Below are positions 8,087 through 64,000 of a stretch of 64,000 nt of DNA, in pieces. Position numbers and translations under genes: made by a program. The stretch spans positions 225,831 through 289,830 of the forward strand of contig JAPPFB010000021.1 of the NCBI GenBank assembly GCA_028875225.1. The letters are read 5' to 3'. The stretch is from Chloroflexota bacterium (GTDB lineage Bacteria > Chloroflexota > Dehalococcoidia > Bin125). Within the stretch, counting starts at the first letter, position 1. Each line of letters starts with the position of its first letter. Below the pieces are notes generated by a model. That model did no database searches. It was not told the DNA's origin and saw nothing but the letters and a program-made list of their open reading frames with translations.

Positions 8087-9079
8087 TCAGACCTCGAGCA
8101 CCGGGTTGTAGCAGGCCACCCGTTGCCTGATCCGGCCGCCGACGACCTCGCTCAGGGCCGGCTCGCCGTCGGTCCGGCACTTGGTCAGTGCCTTGGGGCA
8201 GCGATCGAGATAGGCGCAATGTTCACCGATCTCCGCGCTGGTGAGGTCGGGCAATCCGCCCGGGATCTGACGCAGCCGCGACCCGCGCCGCCGGTCCAGC
8301 CGCGGCAGCGTATCCAGCAGCGCCCAGGTGTACGGATGACGCGGCTGACGATAGAGCGGAATCACGTCGTCCACTTCCATCATGCTGCCCGCGTAGATGA
8401 TCGCCACCCGTTCGGCGATCTGCGCGACGACGCCCATGTCGTGCGTGATCAGCAGAATCGCCGTGCCGCGTTCGTCCCGCAGCCGCTCGAGTTCGTAGAG
8501 AATCTGGGCCTGGACGGTGACGTCGAGCGACGCGGTCGGTTCGTCTGCGATCAGTACCTGCGGATCGAGCGCCGTAGCGATCGCAATCATGATCCGCTGG
8601 CACATCCCGCCGGACAGCTCGCCCGGATACGATTTCGCCACCCTGATTGGATCCGGTAGTCGCATCGCGTTCAGCGCCTCGAGCGATCGCTCGCGGGCTT
8701 CGTTCTTGGTCACCGTGCGGTGCGACGTGATCACCTCTTCCACCTGTTGTCCGACGGTGATGATCGGATTCAGCCCGGCGATGGGATCCTGGAAGATCAT
8801 CGAGATCTGGTCACCGCGGATGCGTTGCAACTCCTGCCGGTCCATCTGGCCGACGTCGCGATGCTCGTAGCGAATCGTCCCGCTGGTCTGGTTGGCGTTG
8901 CGCGGCAGAATGCGCAGGATGCCCAGTCCCAGGGTGGTCTTGCCGGAACCACTCTCACCGACCAGGGCGACAATCTCGCCCCGTTCCAGCGACAACGACG
9001 CCCCGCGCACGGCCCGCACTGGGCCTTCGCGCGTGTTGTACTCAATGCTGACGTCGTCGATGGTCAGGACAGGCGGCAC
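8087..9079 (-). CDS. ABC transporter ATP-binding protein, OppD/DppD-like, orphan (no permease adjacent)
   Basis: Walker A GESGSGKTT, ABC signature LSGGMCQR, Walker B ILIADE; long ORF N-terminus (to 9310) is Arg/Cys-rich and likely untranslated; GTG start near 9079. Confidence 0.8.
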   Translation of the reverse strand: MPPVLTIDDVSIEYNTREGPVRAVRGASLSLERGEIVALVGESGSGKTTLGLGILRILPRNANQTSGTIRYEHRDVGQMDRQELQRIRGDQISMIFQDPIAGLNPIITVGQQVEEVITSHRTVTKNEARERSLEALNAMRLPDPIRVAKSYPGELSGGMCQRIMIAIATALDPQVLIADEPTASLDVTVQAQILYELERLRDERGTAILLITHDMGVVAQIAERVAIIYAGSMMEVDDVIPLYRQPRHPYTWALLDTLPRLDRRRGSRLRQIPGGLPDLTSAEIGEHCAYLDRCPKALTKCRTDGEPALSEVVGGRIRQRVACYNPVLEV

Positions 9080-9128
9080 GCCATCAGTGTATGCACTTGC
9101 CGGAGTAGCAACACCGGGAAACGGTCGC

Positions 9129-9854
9129 CTACTGCGGTCGACGAATGATCGAGACGACCCGGCCCTGGATCTGCATGTTCGATTCGTCGGTGAACATCGG
9201 ATCCATGGTTGGGTTCTCGGGTTGGAGTCGCACCTGGCCCTGTTCGTAGTACAGGCGCTTGAGCGTGCAAATGTTCTCCTCGCGCAACCAGACCGCGGCC
9301 ATCTGACCATTGGAGATGTGTTGCGCCTCTTCCAGGATCACGGTGTCGTTGTCCGCGATCAGGGCGTCGATCATCGAGTCGCCGCGCACGGTGAGCGCGA
9401 ACACACTCTCAGGATCGCGGCCGGCCAGCATGTCCGACGTGACGGCGATCTTGCTTTCGGCGTGTTCAACGTCAACACCCTCGGGAACCAACGAGCGAGT
9501 GCCGGCCGCGATCGATCCGAGCAACGGCACCGCGAGCGAGGCCACGCTCGGCTCCAGCTGGGCCGGCTGCACCGGATCGACCGGCTGGGTCAGCGAGATC
9601 GTGCGCGCCCGCTCGCGGTCGCGGCGAATGTGACCCTCGCGTTCGAGGATCTTCAGGTTGTAGTCGGCCACCGAGGTTGAAGACAACTGGCAACCCTCGA
9701 CGATGTCGCGCACCGAGGGCGGATAGTGATAGCGGGCGAAGTAGTCCTGCAGAAAGGCCAGGATGCGCTCCGGCTTGTCCGATCGCGGACCGCGCTTGCC
9801 GCGCCGACGCGCCTGTGGTGCATCGGGACTATTCGAGGTGGGCTGGTCTGACAT
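9129..9854 (-). CDS. lexA: LexA repressor
   Basis: wHTH N-domain, AVPLLGSIAAGT cleavage-site region, VRGDSM...K S24 peptidase motifs; ATG at 9854 preferred over ORF-track start 9914. Confidence 0.85.
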   Translation of the reverse strand: MSDQPTSNSPDAPQARRRGKRGPRSDKPERILAFLQDYFARYHYPPSVRDIVEGCQLSSTSVADYNLKILEREGHIRRDRERARTISLTQPVDPVQPAQLEPSVASLAVPLLGSIAAGTRSLVPEGVDVEHAESKIAVTSDMLAGRDPESVFALTVRGDSMIDALIADNDTVILEEAQHISNGQMAAVWLREENICTLKRLYYEQGQVRLQPENPTMDPMFTDESNMQIQGRVVSIIRRPQ

Positions 9855-9964
9855 GTTCAAGATCTCCTGTTCAATGGAGCTGTGCCGGGCGTTCGCACAG
9901 TGACGGCGATGCATAGCCGCTTAACGACATAACTGAGTATAGCATCTCTCCGAGCAGGTGTGCG

Positions 9965-9976
9965 GAACGGCCGTTC
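9965..9976. promoter_or_regulatory. Candidate SOS (Cheo-type) box GAACGGCCGTTC in divergent lexA / PIG-L promoter region
   Basis: Perfect GAAC-N4-GTTC palindrome, 111 bp upstream of lexA ATG and 82 bp upstream of the divergent gene. Confidence 0.55.
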
Positions 9977-10057
9977 TGTACTTTCCTGTCCATTGTGCGC
10001 CTATACGCTGGTGATGTCAAGCCCACGCCCCGTGTTTCGCCCGGAAAGACCAGCTTC

Positions 10058-10810
10058 ATGAACATGCCTCCCGAAACCGACAACAGAGTCGGCCTGGTGA
10101 TCGCCGCGCATCCCGACGATCCGGACTTCGGCGCAGGCGGCACCGCAGCGCTGTGGACCACGCTGGGCTGGGAGATGCACTATCTGGTCGTGACCAACGG
10201 CGCCAAGGGCACCGCCGACCCGGAGATGACCTCTGAACGTCTGGTCCCGATGCGTGAAGTGGAACAGCGAAACGCGGCCGAGGAACTCGGTGTCGTCAGC
10301 TGCACATTCCTCGGTGGCGAAGACGGCGAGCTGGAGTACACGCGCGAGTACCTGGGCGGCATCGTCAGGGCAATCCGCCAGATTCAACCGCACGCGGTCT
10401 TCACCCACTCGACCGACATCATCCATCGCCGGGCGTTGGAGGCCGATCCGTCCGATCCGCTCTCTGAGTGGCGTGGATTCATCAATCACCGCGATCATCG
10501 CTGCACCGGCGAGATGACGATCGACGCCGTCTATCCGACCGCGCGCGACCGGCTCAACTTCCCCGAGCACCTCGATGAGGGCCTCGAATGCCACAAGGTC
10601 GCCGAACTGTTCATCTGGGGCAGTATGGCGGCCAACTACGACATCGATATCACCGACGTGATTCAGACCAAGATTCGCGCCTTGACCCGGCACGTCTCGC
10701 AGTTCGGTGATCGCGGCGAGGACTTCATTGCCAACGTCGAAAAGCGCTGGAGTTCGGCCGATGGCCGCTACTACGAACACTTCGAGCGGGTCTCGCTGCC
10801 GGTCTTCTAG
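10058..10810 (+). CDS. PIG-L/LmbE family deacetylase
   Basis: AHPDDPDFGAGGT motif; start uncertain (9995 GTG or 10058 ATG). Confidence 0.7.
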   Translation: MNMPPETDNRVGLVIAAHPDDPDFGAGGTAALWTTLGWEMHYLVVTNGAKGTADPEMTSERLVPMREVEQRNAAEELGVVSCTFLGGEDGELEYTREYLGGIVRAIRQIQPHAVFTHSTDIIHRRALEADPSDPLSEWRGFINHRDHRCTGEMTIDAVYPTARDRLNFPEHLDEGLECHKVAELFIWGSMAANYDIDITDVIQTKIRALTRHVSQFGDRGEDFIANVEKRWSSADGRYYEHFERVSLPVF

Positions 10811-57551: not shown

Positions 57552-57851
57552 ATGACCACCGCCGACCAGATCGAGCTCAACATCAGGATCGACAAAAGGG
57601 TCAAGCAACGCCTCATTGACGAGGCGTCGCGTCAAGGATTCGAAATCGATGTCTTCTGCCAGCAGGCGATTCAGCAAGCGCTTGAAGACGGCAAGGCCGA
57701 AGAATCTGTGAAGGAAACGAACCTCCAACTCTTCGAGAGACTCCTGGAAGAGAGAGACGAACAGTTCGGAGATCGACGGTTCTTGAAAACTGGCGTTGAG
57801 TTGATTCGTGAGGCCCGCGAACTCCGCTCAAAGCAGATGGACGAGTGGTAG
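57552..57851 (+). CDS. vapB: type II antitoxin (VapB-like)
   Basis: 99 aa, charged helical; stop overlaps PIN gene start; low-GC patch. Confidence 0.65.
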   Translation: MTTADQIELNIRIDKRVKQRLIDEASRQGFEIDVFCQQAIQQALEDGKAEESVKETNLQLFERLLEERDEQFGDRRFLKTGVELIREARELRSKQMDEW

Positions 57852-58294
57852 TGGCGGAGTTGGTTGTCGTCGATGCCAGCTTGGCCTTCAAATGGTTCGT
57901 CAAAGAAGATGACTCTGACCACGCTGATGCACTCGGTCGTACCTGGTTGGAACGGGATGTCCGAGTCGCAGGGCCACTCACTCTGTTGGTAGAGCTGACG
58001 AACGCTGTGCATCGTCGTATCCAATCCGGACGCCTTGAGGAGCGGGAATGGCGATTCGCCATAGGCCGCATGATGCAGTTTCCGTTCGCGATAGAAGAGT
58101 CGCAGCACCTCATCCCCCGTACCCTCGAACTGGCCAGACAGCTCGGACAAGGTGCCGTCTACGACTCCCACTATCTCGCTCTCGCAGAGTCTCTGGACTG
58201 CGAACTCTGGACCGCGGACGAGCGCTTTCAGCGCGCCGCACGAGGGCAACATCCGCGCGTACGCCTACTCGCAGAGTTCGCCCCTCTAGCCTGA
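57845..58294 (+). CDS. vapC: PIN-domain toxin VapC
   Basis: VVVDASLAFKWF..E(D)...DSHYLALAE..DCELWTAD PIN acidic residues; GTG start overlapping vapB stop. Confidence 0.8.
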   Translation: MVVAELVVVDASLAFKWFVKEDDSDHADALGRTWLERDVRVAGPLTLLVELTNAVHRRIQSGRLEEREWRFAIGRMMQFPFAIEESQHLIPRTLELARQLGQGAVYDSHYLALAESLDCELWTADERFQRAARGQHPRVRLLAEFAPLA

Positions 58295-61107: not shown

Positions 61108-61317
61108 CCTCCGATCCCCTCTCCCTCTGGAGAGTTGCGCGTAAACATTTGAAGAAGTCGCCCCCGCGAAGGCAGGGGCCGCCCGACCACTGCTCGCCTA
61201 ACTCCGATGCCCCGCACTTGCCTGCCCCTGGCTTGAACAGGGGATGCGGGGCCCAGACCCAGATCGCCGCCCAACCCCGTCATTCTCGCGCAAACGGGGG
61301 AATCTCGCCCCTTCACG

Positions 61318-61367
61318 CTCTCCCCCCGCGAAGCGGGGGGAGATGCCGAAGGCAGAGGGGGGGGCTC
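61318..61367 (+). repeat. REP-like structured repeat, copy H
   Basis: ctctccccccgcgaagcggggggagatgccgaaggcagagggggggg. Confidence 0.8.
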
Positions 61368-61411: not shown

Positions 61412-64000
61412 GTGCCCCAAGCCGCAGCCCTCTCCGCCGCCGAGTTCGCCGCCAAGTGGCGCGACAACGCCCGACGCGAGAGCGCCTCCTCCCAGGAACA
61501 CTTCCTCGACCTCTGCCGGCTCCTCGGCGTGCCGACCCCCGCCGAAGCCGATCCCTCCGGCGAGTCCTACACCTTCGAGGCCGGTGTGGAGAAACTGGGC
61601 GGCGGCCAGGGCTGGGCCGACGTCTGGAAGCGCGGACACTTCGGCTGGGAGTACAAGGGCGACCGCGCCGACCTCGCCGCCGCCTACCGACAGCTCCTCG
61701 ACTACCGCGAAGACCTGGAAAACCCGCCCGCCCTCGTTGTCAGCGACATGGACCGCATCGAGGTCCACACCAACTTCACCAATACTCGGCCCCGCGTCCA
61801 CGAAATCACGCTCGACGACCTCGCAGCAGGCGGTGATCGCACAGGGCTTGCCCTCGACATTCTGCGCTCGGTAATGAGCGACCCGGCCAAACTGCGCCCG
61901 CGCCAGACGCCGGACGAAGTCACCCAGGCCGCCGCCACACGCTTCGCCGACCTCGCCCGCTCCATGCAGGAGCGCGGACACGATCCCGAGGCGGTCGCCC
62001 ACTTCCTCAATCGCGTCCTCTTCTGCCTCTTCGCCGAGGATGTCGGCCTGCTGCCGCGACGGCTGATGACCGACCTGGTCGAGTCGCGCAAGGACGATCC
62101 CGAGGAGTTCGCCAAGGGACTTACCGACCTCTTCCGGCTGATGTCGGATCGTGAAGCGGGCCGATTCTTCGGCACCCAGCGGATCGAGTGGTTCAACGGC
62201 GGACTGTTCGACGACGATTCCGTGCTGCCGTTCACCCGCGACGAACTGCGCACCGTCGCCGACGCCTCCAGTCTCGACTGGTCGCAGGTCGAGCCCGCCA
62301 TCCTCGGCACTCTCTTCGAGCGCGGGCTCGACCCCGATAAGCGGGGACAACTCGGCGCGCACTACACCGACCGCGAGAAGATCCTGATGGTCGTCGAGCC
62401 CGTCGTCATGACCCCGCTGCGCCGCGAGTTCGCATCAATGCAGGAGCGCGTCGCCGCGCTGATGAAGGACCGCCAGCCCAGCCCGCTCACCCGCGACGGC
62501 CTGCGCCGAGCCAACCTGCCCAGATGGGAGCGGGACGCCGAGACCGAGTGGCGCTCGTACCTCAAGCGCCTGCGCGACGTGCGCGTGCTCGACCCCGCCT
62601 GCGGCTCGGGCAACTTCCTCTACGTCACCCTGCGCCTGCTCAAGGACCTCGAACAGGAAGCCATCCGCTGGGGCGCCGAGCGGCTGCGCATCACCGGCGA
62701 GTTCCCCCGCGTCGACCCGCACAACGTGCTTGGCATCGAGATCAACCCCTACGCCAAGGAGCTCGCCGGCGTCGCCATCTGGATCGGCCACATCCAGTGG
62801 ATGCTCGACCACGGCTACGGCTTCCCCCGAGACCCCGTCCTCCAACCCCTCGACAACATCGAACTCCGGGACGCCATCCTCGCCTACGACGAAGACGGCA
62901 ACCCTACTCCGGCGACGTGGCCGGAGGCCGAGTTCATCGTTGGCAATCCGCCGTTCTTGGGAACCAAGTACATGCGCGAGAAGCTAACTGACCCATATGT
63001 AGACGACCTGTTCGTTGCGTGGGATGAGGAAGTGGCTCGGGAGTCGGATCTCGTTTGCTACTGGCACGAACAGGCGCGTCGGCGTATAGCCGCCGGCGAG
63101 TCACTTCGAGCTGGACTGCTGGCCACGAACTCCATACGGGGTGGCGCAAATCGAAGTGTGCTCGACGAGGTCAAGCGAACGGGCGACATCTTCAATGCCT
63201 GGTCCGATGAGCCGTGGATTGTAGACGGAGCGGCGGTACGGGTATCCATCGTCGGCCAAGACAATGGCAGCGAAGAGGCAAAAGCTCTCGACGGCCATGC
63301 CGTTTCCGCTATCAACTCCGACCTGACTGTTGGAGTTGATGTGACCAAAGCCCGTGCCCTTGTCGAAAACCAAGCCGTTGCGTTCATGGGCGACACGAAA
63401 GGCGGGCAGTTCAATGTCTCAGGTGGCGTTGCCCGTGAAATGCTGATCCTTCCAACCAACATCAACGGTCGTTCGAATGCCGATGTTGTTGTTCCCAGAG
63501 TGAACGCAATGGATGTCGCTCGACGGCCTCGTGACGAGTTCATCGTCGACTTCGGCACTGACTCACGGGAGGTTGCAGCAGCAGAGTACGAGGCCCCGTT
63601 CGAGTTCATCCGCGAGCATGTCAAGCCTGCTAGAGAGCAGAATCGGCGCAAAGCCTATAGGGAACGATGGTGGCTTCACGTTGAGCCCCGGCCAGCCATG
63701 CGAAGCGCTGTCAAGTCTCTACGTCGCTTCATCGCCACCCCCGCTGTAGCTAAACATCGACTTTTCGTGTGGCTTGAGGCCCCGACCTTGCCGGACCACG
63801 CCCTCTTCGCGTTCGCTCGCGAAGATGATTATGCCTTTGGCGTCCTCCACTCTGTAGTCCACGAGCTTTGGTCGTTGCGAACGTGTACTTGGTTAGGCAA
63901 GGGAAACGATCCGCGCTACACGCCGACCACGACCTTCGAGACCTTCCCCTTCCCCTGGCCGCTCAATACCCCCGACGACGCCCTGACGCCCGAACAGTGC
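61412..64000 (+). CDS. MmeI-family type IIL restriction-modification enzyme (fused PD-ExK endonuclease, gamma-class N6-adenine MTase; target recognition domain beyond window), 3-prime truncated
   Basis: No stop to window end; N-terminus AALSAAEFAAKWRDNARRESASSQEHFLDLCRLLG like MmeI N-terminus; D...EYK nuclease motif; VLDPACGSGNFL (motif I) and FIVGNPPFLG (motif IV); GTG start 61412. Confidence 0.8.
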   Translation, partial: MPQAAALSAAEFAAKWRDNARRESASSQEHFLDLCRLLGVPTPAEADPSGESYTFEAGVEKLGGGQGWADVWKRGHFGWEYKGDRADLAAAYRQLLDYREDLENPPALVVSDMDRIEVHTNFTNTRPRVHEITLDDLAAGGDRTGLALDILRSVMSDPAKLRPRQTPDEVTQAAATRFADLARSMQERGHDPEAVAHFLNRVLFCLFAEDVGLLPRRLMTDLVESRKDDPEEFAKGLTDLFRLMSDREAGRFFGTQRIEWFNGGLFDDDSVLPFTRDELRTVADASSLDWSQVEPAILGTLFERGLDPDKRGQLGAHYTDREKILMVVEPVVMTPLRREFASMQERVAALMKDRQPSPLTRDGLRRANLPRWERDAETEWRSYLKRLRDVRVLDPACGSGNFLYVTLRLLKDLEQEAIRWGAERLRITGEFPRVDPHNVLGIEINPYAKELAGVAIWIGHIQWMLDHGYGFPRDPVLQPLDNIELRDAILAYDEDGNPTPATWPEAEFIVGNPPFLGTKYMREKLTDPYVDDLFVAWDEEVARESDLVCYWHEQARRRIAAGESLRAGLLATNSIRGGANRSVLDEVKRTGDIFNAWSDEPWIVDGAAVRVSIVGQDNGSEEAKALDGHAVSAINSDLTVGVDVTKARALVENQAVAFMGDTKGGQFNVSGGVAREMLILPTNINGRSNADVVVPRVNAMDVARRPRDEFIVDFGTDSREVAAAEYEAPFEFIREHVKPAREQNRRKAYRERWWLHVEPRPAMRSAVKSLRRFIATPAVAKHRLFVWLEAPTLPDHALFAFAREDDYAFGVLHSVVHELWSLRTCTWLGKGNDPRYTPTTTFETFPFPWPLNTPDDALTPEQC

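Follow-up and report, generated by a model that had tools for sequence, protein, structure and literature searches.

Does an abrupt fall in GC content inside a restriction gene mean that part of the gene has been imported from elsewhere? The question is raised by the last gene of a 64,000-nucleotide (nt) stretch of DNA from a Chloroflexota bacterium (contig JAPPFB010000021.1, positions 225,831 to 289,830), referred to below as the window. The gene resembles that of the restriction-modification (RM) enzyme MmeI. An initial annotation had noticed a drop in GC content near 62.9 kb and had proposed that the C-terminal specificity region was recombined or imported. The analysis presented here shows that the gene is a mosaic: an internal block with defined breakpoints carries an excess of silent-site divergence and is decoupled from the two arms that flank it. 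The explanation that very probably holds as a whole is that of an intact MmeI-like enzyme whose DNA-reading module is an exchangeable, old allelic cassette, with low GC content at third codon positions (GC3) as its standing feature.

Identity and integrity of the gene

The reading frame is open from a GTG codon at 61,412 to the window end, which corresponds to 862 translated codons. The whole gene is present in two other assemblies (L002, 188-3109; L003, 141-3062), with 0-1 mismatch to the window. The full protein has 973 amino acids (aa), and the predicted end of the gene lies at about 64,333, outside the window. The window protein is 100% identical to P0001 (973 aa), named in its source as a DNA methyltransferase of a Chloroflexota metagenome-assembled genome (MAG). 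Three assemblies share the same intact 973-aa frame, and a fourth agrees from codon 66 on. The initial annotation had allowed for a pseudogene; this possibility falls away with the intact downstream frame and a ratio of non-synonymous to synonymous divergence (dN/dS) of ~0.15. The gene and its catalytic motifs, including those of the methyltransferase (MTase) and its S-adenosylmethionine (SAM) site, are located as follows.

61412..64000, + strand: MmeI-like type IIL/IIG restriction-modification gene, first 862 codons and two bases of codon 863 (translation; Pfam, PADLOC, PDB 5HR4)
61619..61657, + strand: PD-(D/E)XK endonuclease catalytic motif D70...E80-Y81-K82, aligned with MmeI D70/E80/K82
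62585..62620, + strand: MTase motif I (SAM binding) VLDPACGSGNFL, residues 392-403, aligned with MmeI FDPACGCGNFL
62945..62956, + strand: MTase motif IV NPPF, residues 512-515, aligned with MmeI NPPF 481-484; left conserved arm edge and crossover site

Several profile searches agree on the family. In Pfam, the cut-off of 27 is exceeded by MmeI_Mtase, at 100.5 bits, and by MmeI_hel, at 56.9 bits; the latter match covers residues 194-266 and corresponds to the helical spacer that separates nuclease from MTase. For MmeI_N, the window protein stayed short of E 0.01; homolog P0006 scores 41.7 bits. The PADLOC model REase_MTase_IIG reaches 1003.7 bits, with type IIG models covering residues 378-848. 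MmeI (5HR4) is the sole match in the PDB, with E 5e-46 for the single sequence and 2e-58 for a 46-sequence profile. Searches of NCBIfam returned nothing beyond sub-threshold PglX/MAD2 matches at motif I. The nuclease triad D70/E80/K82, motif I and motif IV are invariant across 46 homologs, and mutation of the triad abolishes cleavage in MmeI (PMC4833311). Motif I precedes motif IV, which is the arrangement of gamma-class N6-adenine MTases. The assignment made in the initial annotation to a single-polypeptide enzyme of the MmeI family, with its D...EYK motif, motif I and NPPF, is thus upheld by Pfam, PADLOC and the PDB match. Judged by these profiles and motifs, the gene encodes an intact MmeI-like type IIL single-chain restriction-modification enzyme (type IIG in PADLOC), and the enzyme is probably active. 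The subfamily is tight and large: its proteins of ~970 aa occur in many phyla, and the closest matches are mostly from Chloroflexota.

The internal block and its flanking arms

The drop in GC content is real. In 200-nt windows, GC is 0.63-0.73 up to ~62.9 kb and 0.54-0.605 from there on, and the segment 63,001-64,000 has the lowest GC of all 1-kb windows in the 64 kb (0.590). The best single change point in GC3 lies at codon 524, just after NPPF, where GC3 falls from 0.88 to 0.63 (2-log-likelihood support, nt 62,888-62,993); none of 1000 permutations was as strong. At this point GC at first codon positions goes from 0.71 to 0.67 and at second positions from 0.44 to 0.46, so that the drop is almost entirely a matter of third positions. 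Amino-acid composition was considered as the cause and rejected, since the amino acids of the block, written with the codon usage of the arms, would give a GC3 of 0.875, and 0.584 is observed. Uniform codon usage, which according to the initial annotation would speak against a chimera, is not found: over the full gene, GC3 is 0.880 in codons 1-524, 0.602 in codons 525-833 and 0.893 in codons 834-973 (log-likelihood ratio 47.6 against a single composition). The low-GC3 stretch is therefore an internal block of ~955 nt, from nt ~62,954 to ~63,910, and not the whole C-terminus. Its right edge lies within the window, 90 nt short of the end, and for this reason the drop seemed to run to the window end. 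The last 140 codons are host-like in GC3 and 84-98% identical to orthologs at the nucleotide level, and beyond the end of the gene GC has recovered to 0.64-0.71.

The same block appears when the gene is compared with P0016 (locus L085), an ortholog located at the same chromosomal site, with four shared downstream genes and, upstream, a remnant of the 3' end of an ECH gene. Nucleotide identity to P0016 is 0.88-0.97 up to codon 510, 0.53-0.71 over codons 511-840 and 0.86-0.98 after that. The homolog P0003 shows a similar pattern, and the two together span 0.88-0.97, 0.53-0.74 and 0.84-0.98. Breakpoints were also placed by maximum likelihood from mismatch density, in which GC content is not used. 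They fall at codons 515/516 and 833/834 (nt 62,954-62,957 and 63,910-63,913), with a fitted nucleotide divergence of 0.33-0.39 inside the cassette and 0.10-0.12 outside; against P0016 the values are 0.385 and 0.097. The left edge is the F of NPPF, and mismatches to orthologs begin right after this motif. The block, which includes the target recognition domain (TRD), and the edge to its right are delimited as follows.

62954..63910, + strand: hypervariable recognition cassette, codons ~516-833, comprising the rest of the MTase domain and the TRD (GC3, mismatch-density breakpoints, synonymous divergence)
63911..63958, + strand: right conserved arm edge PRYTPTTTFETFPFPW, probable crossover site; 48 nt without mismatch to P0016, in invariant or near-invariant columns

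Synonymous divergence (dS) separates the three parts of the gene clearly. The values against P0016, together with those for the genes downstream, are given below.

5' arm (codons 2-524): dS 0.345, dN/dS 0.15
Cassette (codons 525-833): dS 2.2 (saturated), dN/dS ~0.16 (0.14-0.16)
3' arm (codons 834-973): dS 0.280, dN/dS 0.17
Four downstream orthologs at the P0016 locus: dS 0.22-0.57, dN/dS 0.10-0.37

Silent-site divergence in the cassette is ~6-8-fold that of the arms. These values indicate that the arms have diverged together with the genome and that the block is much older in ancestry and under ordinary purifying selection. Because the cassette combines a dS of ~2.2 with the same dN/dS of ~0.15 as the arms, the block is best understood as an old allele that has been replaced, and not as the product of fast evolution in place. 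The separate comparison of the gene parts proposed in the initial annotation accordingly gives discordant relatives for arms and block.

The independence of the two parts is also seen across the subfamily, for which all 7140 pairs of 120 close homologs were compared. Median cassette identity is 0.62-0.70 at any arm identity from 0.70 to 1.0, with a Spearman coefficient of 0.02-0.04. Clustering of the 120 homologs at 85% identity yields 8 clusters for the arms and 91 for the TRD, and in 106 pairs the arms are at least 90% identical at a TRD identity below 60%. This incongruence between cassette and arms is one of all-pairs identities and region-wise dS. A Spearman coefficient of -0.42, obtained when N-terminal identity to the query was compared with that of the block, was set aside, since hits chosen on total score force a negative correlation.

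The cassette itself is a mosaic, as judged from sliding identity profiles against P0095, the homolog with the closest TRD (L087, 4,001-6,909). P0095 is similar to the window gene over one sub-block; elsewhere its identity is lower, at 64-90% in the arms and 68-73% over codons 511-630 (nucleotide level).

63329..63841, + strand: sub-block in the cassette, codons ~640-810, the TRD proper; 86-90% nucleotide identity to the frameshifted P0095 (sliding profiles)

In P0095, a deletion of 1 nt around codon 775 splits the gene into open reading frames (ORFs) of 778 and 184 aa. The frameshift is seen on five contigs, and for this reason P0095 is probably a truly inactivated copy.

What the block encodes can be read from the structure of MmeI, which consists of a nuclease (residues 1-155), a spacer (156-300), an MTase (301-620), a TRD (621-825) and a helical bundle (826-919) (PMC4833311). 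The cassette maps to MmeI residues ~485-808, with NPPF 512-515 corresponding to MmeI 481-484 and residues 828-835 to MmeI 805-810. The base-contacting residues of MmeI and the minor-groove loop K487-S488-K489 of its MTase have been reported in PMC4833311. The positions K487-K489, Y642, K645, A723, F737, Y738, E751, T752, N773, L805, E806 and R808 fall within the cassette, and R810 aligns two residues past its right edge. The cassette therefore holds the equivalent of the K487-S488-K489 loop, the MTase motifs after motif IV, and, as far as the last contact loop, both halves of the TRD (TRD-N, TRD-C). By this mapping, the block is larger than the TRD alone: it begins inside the MTase domain and corresponds to a complete DNA-reading module. 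The alignment near residues 806-810 is too weak for a recognition sequence to be derived from the MmeI residue code.

Two further observations concern the 5' part of the gene. Codons 121-150 (61,772-61,861) form a second small low-GC3 stretch (0.67; homologs have 0.80-0.90 there). Within the 5' arm, similarity to homologs is likewise lowest in this stretch (nucleotide identities of 0.64-0.74), and the dip is specific to the window allele. The first 65 codons have a history of their own.

61412..61606, + strand: 5' segment, codons 1-65; 79% nucleotide identity to P0002, 90% to P0016 (shared GTG start)

All 29 codons that differ between P0001 and P0002 lie in codons 1-65, and the two are identical from codon 66 on. 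P0002 (L088) starts with ATG, not GTG, and its upstream DNA is unrelated (L088 1-3,590; four-way comparison). This pattern suggests a second recombination or rearrangement junction at the 5' end of the gene.

Explanations for the mosaic and its composition

In the explanation favored here, a single polypeptide would combine a PD-ExK nuclease at the N-terminus, a helical spacer, a gamma-class N6-adenine MTase and the TRD. By analogy with MmeI, the enzyme would bind an asymmetric site through its TRD together with its MTase domain, methylate the target adenine on host DNA, and cut incoming DNA that lacks this methylation, at a set distance from the site. Enzymes of the MmeI family cut ~20/18 nt from an asymmetric site and modify one strand only. 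The DNA-reading module, residues 516-833, from just after NPPF to the last base-contact loop of the TRD, would be an allelic cassette of which many anciently diverged versions circulate, each under purifying selection. Homologous recombination would carry cassettes from one otherwise nearly identical gene to another, crossing over within the conserved arms GNPPF and PRYTPTTTFETFPFPW. Since a single reader serves restriction as well as modification, a swap of the cassette would shift both specificities at once, and the host would survive. Phage-driven frequency-dependent selection would then maintain many alleles. As for the low GC3, the most likely cause would be a weaker GC-favoring pressure on silent sites, through biased gene conversion or codon selection, in a region where alleles are too divergent to recombine and are split into many low-frequency classes.

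The alternative that retains the most force, although it is improbable, is a single recent import, in which the C-terminal specificity region came from a lower-GC donor and is still un-ameliorated foreign DNA. The sharp GC3 step right after NPPF would be expected under such an import, as would the discordant relatives of cassette and arms, and low GC is likewise found in the VapBC module nearby. Against the import stands the composition of the family. The family sample consists of genome representatives of many phyla, 45-78% identical; the matches listed include three close relatives, and the rest are ~50% identical. Among these matches, 72 of the 77 homologs have a GC3 trough (mean -0.13; Wilcoxon p 7e-14), and it is limited to codons ~511-840. 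In the close homologs P0016, P0003, P0006 and P0095, GC3 is 0.57-0.68 in the cassette compared with 0.83-0.92 in the arms, and the trough recurs in the same place in L004-L006, that is, in all close homologs examined. A trough at the same coordinates in so many genes is not what a single import would leave. Moreover, cassette GC3 follows host GC3 as measured in the arms (slope 0.87, r 0.74, homologs among the matches listed).

The amino-acid composition of the cassette also argues against import. The differences between cassette and arms in the family are +0.004 for the GARP residues, +0.001 for the FYMINK residues and +0.09 for R/(R+K), with no shift toward AT-rich usage. In the window gene, R/(R+K) is 0.769 in the cassette vs 0.765 in the arms, and the GARP fraction is 0.327 vs 0.326. 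In DNA recently received from an AT-rich donor, protein composition would lag and GC3 would adjust first; the opposite is seen. No donor was found, and the block is internal, not the whole C-terminus as an import of the terminal region would have it. Low amino-acid conservation can be rejected as the cause of the low GC3: at family depth the cassette is as conserved as the arms in protein sequence, and when each class of conservation is taken separately, its GC3 is still 0.12-0.15 lower. No family-wide GC3 dip is seen in those segments of the arms that are variable (codons 121-150 and 331-390).

Because the trough is family-wide and the amino-acid composition is unshifted, the low GC3 appears to be a standing property of the alleles of this family and not the mark of a recent import here. 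Of the region proposed in the initial annotation, the mosaic and the junction after NPPF therefore stand. Its C-terminal extent does not, given an internal block and host-like last 140 codons, and the GC drop loses its value as a sign of import. Continued influx from AT-richer pools may nevertheless contribute. It is also conceivable, as a tentative suggestion, that the silent-site shift toward AT, which follows host GC at a constant offset, is a population-genetic signature of long-term balanced polymorphism, with the cassette escaping a GC-favoring force (biased gene conversion or weak codon selection) to which the recombining arms are subject.

A second alternative is rapid diversification in place, under positive selection by phages and with no exchange of DNA. 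The cassette is indeed the most divergent part of the gene among close homologs, and a few substitutions can change the specificity of MmeI (PMC2731914). However, its dN/dS of 0.14-0.16 equals that of the arms, and it is silent divergence that is raised ~6-8-fold. Cassette identity is independent of arm identity, and the TRD of P0095 is 86-90% identical to that of the window gene at the nucleotide level though its arms diverge more. The excess of cassette dS under ordinary purifying selection therefore leaves very little room for fast evolution in place, and none to speak of for an overlapping gene or RNA that would constrain silent sites.

An artefact, either a chimeric metagenome assembly joined inside the gene or a decaying pseudogene, can be considered in view of the MAG source, the contigs of two other assemblies that break in the repeat 140-187 nt upstream of the gene, and the frameshift in one homolog (P0095). 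It is most implausible, since the same arms and cassette are found with 0-1 mismatch in three assemblies, and in a fourth from codon 66 on. The contig breaks lie in the upstream spacer and none at the junctions, and the frame is intact, with invariant catalytic motifs and the low dN/dS given above. Finally, a second function of the block as DNA or RNA (an antisense gene, or a structured or regulatory RNA) that constrains its composition, for which a 197-aa antisense ORF at 63,058-63,651 and the family-wide extent of the trough could be cited, is scarcely credible, since silent sites are saturated (proportion of synonymous differences, pS, 0.71-0.79) and so unconstrained, and the antisense ORF covers part of the block and is of a kind common in high-GC DNA.

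Several points weigh against the explanation of an intact enzyme with an old exchangeable cassette. The Pfam model MmeI_TRD scores 25 bits, under its cut-off of 27, and its match is limited to profile positions 146-205; the C-terminal helical bundle has no significant alignment to MmeI in the profile comparison with 5HR4. All sequences compared come from MAGs. Low-GC hosts are few in the sample: seven have an arm GC3 below 0.68, and their dips range from +0.03 to -0.27. The cassette dS is saturated and partly inflated by composition differences. The proposed cause of the low GC3 is drawn from composition patterns only. No close donor of the whole cassette was found, the best full-cassette relatives being 70-81% identical, and relatives at this distance do not fix the direction or the date of the replacement. 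A protein search with the cassette alone returned none above 73%; the proteins returned were at most 541 aa long and did not include the parent protein, which makes it an unfair search for donors. A paralogous donor inside the window was considered and rejected, as there is no second copy there.

Known systems, significance and neighborhood

The closest known system is MmeI from Methylophilus methylotrophus (PDB 5HR4). Both proteins have the order PD-ExK nuclease, helical spacer, gamma-class N6A MTase and TRD, with D70/E80/K82 at identical numbers, motif I of the form xDPACGxGNFL and motif IV NPPF. They differ in that sequence identity is low and that the end of the TRD (residues 788-859) is aligned by profile alone, weakly, at E 0.079. 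Natural exchange of TRDs in the MmeI family was proposed in 2009 (PMC2731914), with a Microcystis pair 98.5% identical outside the TRD and 55% inside it (PMC2731914). Here the exchange begins not at the border between MTase and TRD but within the MTase domain, directly after NPPF.

Comparable arrangements are found in other RM systems. In the type III modA genes of Neisseria and Haemophilus, conserved arms likewise flank a hypervariable central recognition region that is replaced en bloc and is internally mosaic. The GC content of this region is below that of its arms, which has been read as horizontal acquisition (PMC3311624). The lower GC is thus common to modA and the window gene, but here the family-wide trough and the unchanged amino acids oppose simple import. 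Unlike the window gene, modA encodes a type III Mod protein with a separate Res subunit and is phase-variable. The type I hsdS genes also carry variable TRDs between conserved regions, and recombination reassorts them into new specificities, according to work cited in PMC2731914. They differ in encoding a separate specificity subunit with two TRDs, whereas here one TRD is fused to catalytic domains. The diversity of hsdS alleles has reportedly been attributed to phage-driven frequency-dependent selection.

A further likeness concerns the DISARM and BREX systems. Residues 509-861 match the PADLOC models of the DISARM methyltransferase DrmMI (E 1e-66), and the region of motif I matches models of the BREX protein PglX. 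These matches point to a recognition module of a type common to type IIG/IIL enzymes and DISARM methyltransferases. The full-length match, in contrast, is to type IIG RM models, and the scores are far under the NCBIfam cut-offs for PglX. No DISARM or BREX partner genes occur nearby.

Seen against these systems, the gene would be a well-delimited further case of the cassette exchange known in the MmeI family. Two details may be new, namely an exchanged unit that begins inside the MTase domain and a family-wide silent-site trough with no shift in amino acids. A limited literature search found no paper describing such a trough, which is no proof of novelty.

The significance of the locus lies first in defense: in a stand-alone, putatively anti-phage restriction enzyme, the specificity module has been replaced in comparison with the closest ortholog, which occupies the same chromosomal site, and related Chloroflexota populations therefore probably differ in their methylation marks and in their barriers to phage and DNA exchange. 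The breakpoints at GNPPF and PRYTPTTTFETFPFPW, with a block that includes the part of the MTase expected to touch bases, could be useful for engineering chimeric specificities. A family-wide GC3 trough with no amino-acid shift also calls for caution in reading a local GC drop as recent horizontal transfer, and it may be a modest test case from nature for the forces that hold GC3 high in bacteria. Should the more speculative balanced-polymorphism reading be true, intragenic GC3 troughs could mark, from sequence alone, specificity modules under balancing selection, and they could also provide a natural within-gene test of the hypothesis of GC-biased gene conversion in bacteria.

The surroundings of the gene are metabolic, as the initial annotation had stated. 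The neighbors in the window and in L002 are ECH, CoA-transferase, luciferase-like, SDR and lactamase_B genes, together with one 117-aa ORF that has no Pfam match. No separate MTase or specificity gene is present among them, and the RM gene stands alone. An ORF of 110-117 aa lies directly downstream of the RM gene (L002 3,196-3,549, about 64,420-64,773 in window numbering) and is conserved in three syntenic loci. It has no Pfam match, its dN/dS against the ortholog is 0.34, and in non-syntenic loci it shows no linkage to the RM gene.

The repeat copy that had been noticed upstream of the gene is a dispersed element resembling repetitive extragenic palindromic (REP) sequences.

61316..61367, + strand: core of the REP-like dispersed repeat, a hairpin CTCCCCCC...GGGGGG followed by AGATGCCGAAGGCAGAGGGGGG (blastn of the 304-nt upstream spacer against the window; alignment, fold)

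The repeat unit is ~40 nt long and has seven copies in the window, all on the same strand, the six others lying at ~15,047, 19,638, 33,570, 37,765, 60,131 and 60,198. Copies are also present in the related loci L085, L086 and L087. In two other assemblies, contigs begin or terminate within the 304-nt spacer bearing the repeat, and the corresponding spacer in L085 is only ~31 nt long.

Other genes near members of the family deserve mention. In the window, a toxin-antitoxin pair at 57,552-58,294, consisting of a VapB-like protein (99 aa) and a PIN/VapC protein (149 aa), has GC3 values of 0.69 and 0.63 compared with 0.80-0.91 in its neighbors, and its lower GC content, already remarked on in the initial annotation, is confirmed. 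In L088 (2,817-3,536) and L084 (3,224-3,964), a Uma2-family gene (PF05685, nuclease-like fold) precedes the RM gene by 36-37 nt on the same strand. Neither the window nor L085 has it, and it could be a partner or a mere neighbor. The occurrence of the family in unrelated contexts across genomes suggests that the whole RM gene is mobile as well. At the P0003 locus (L084), a large serine recombinase with Resolvase, Recombinase and Zn_ribbon_recom domains is encoded at 8,544-10,211, 1.6 kb downstream of the RM gene.

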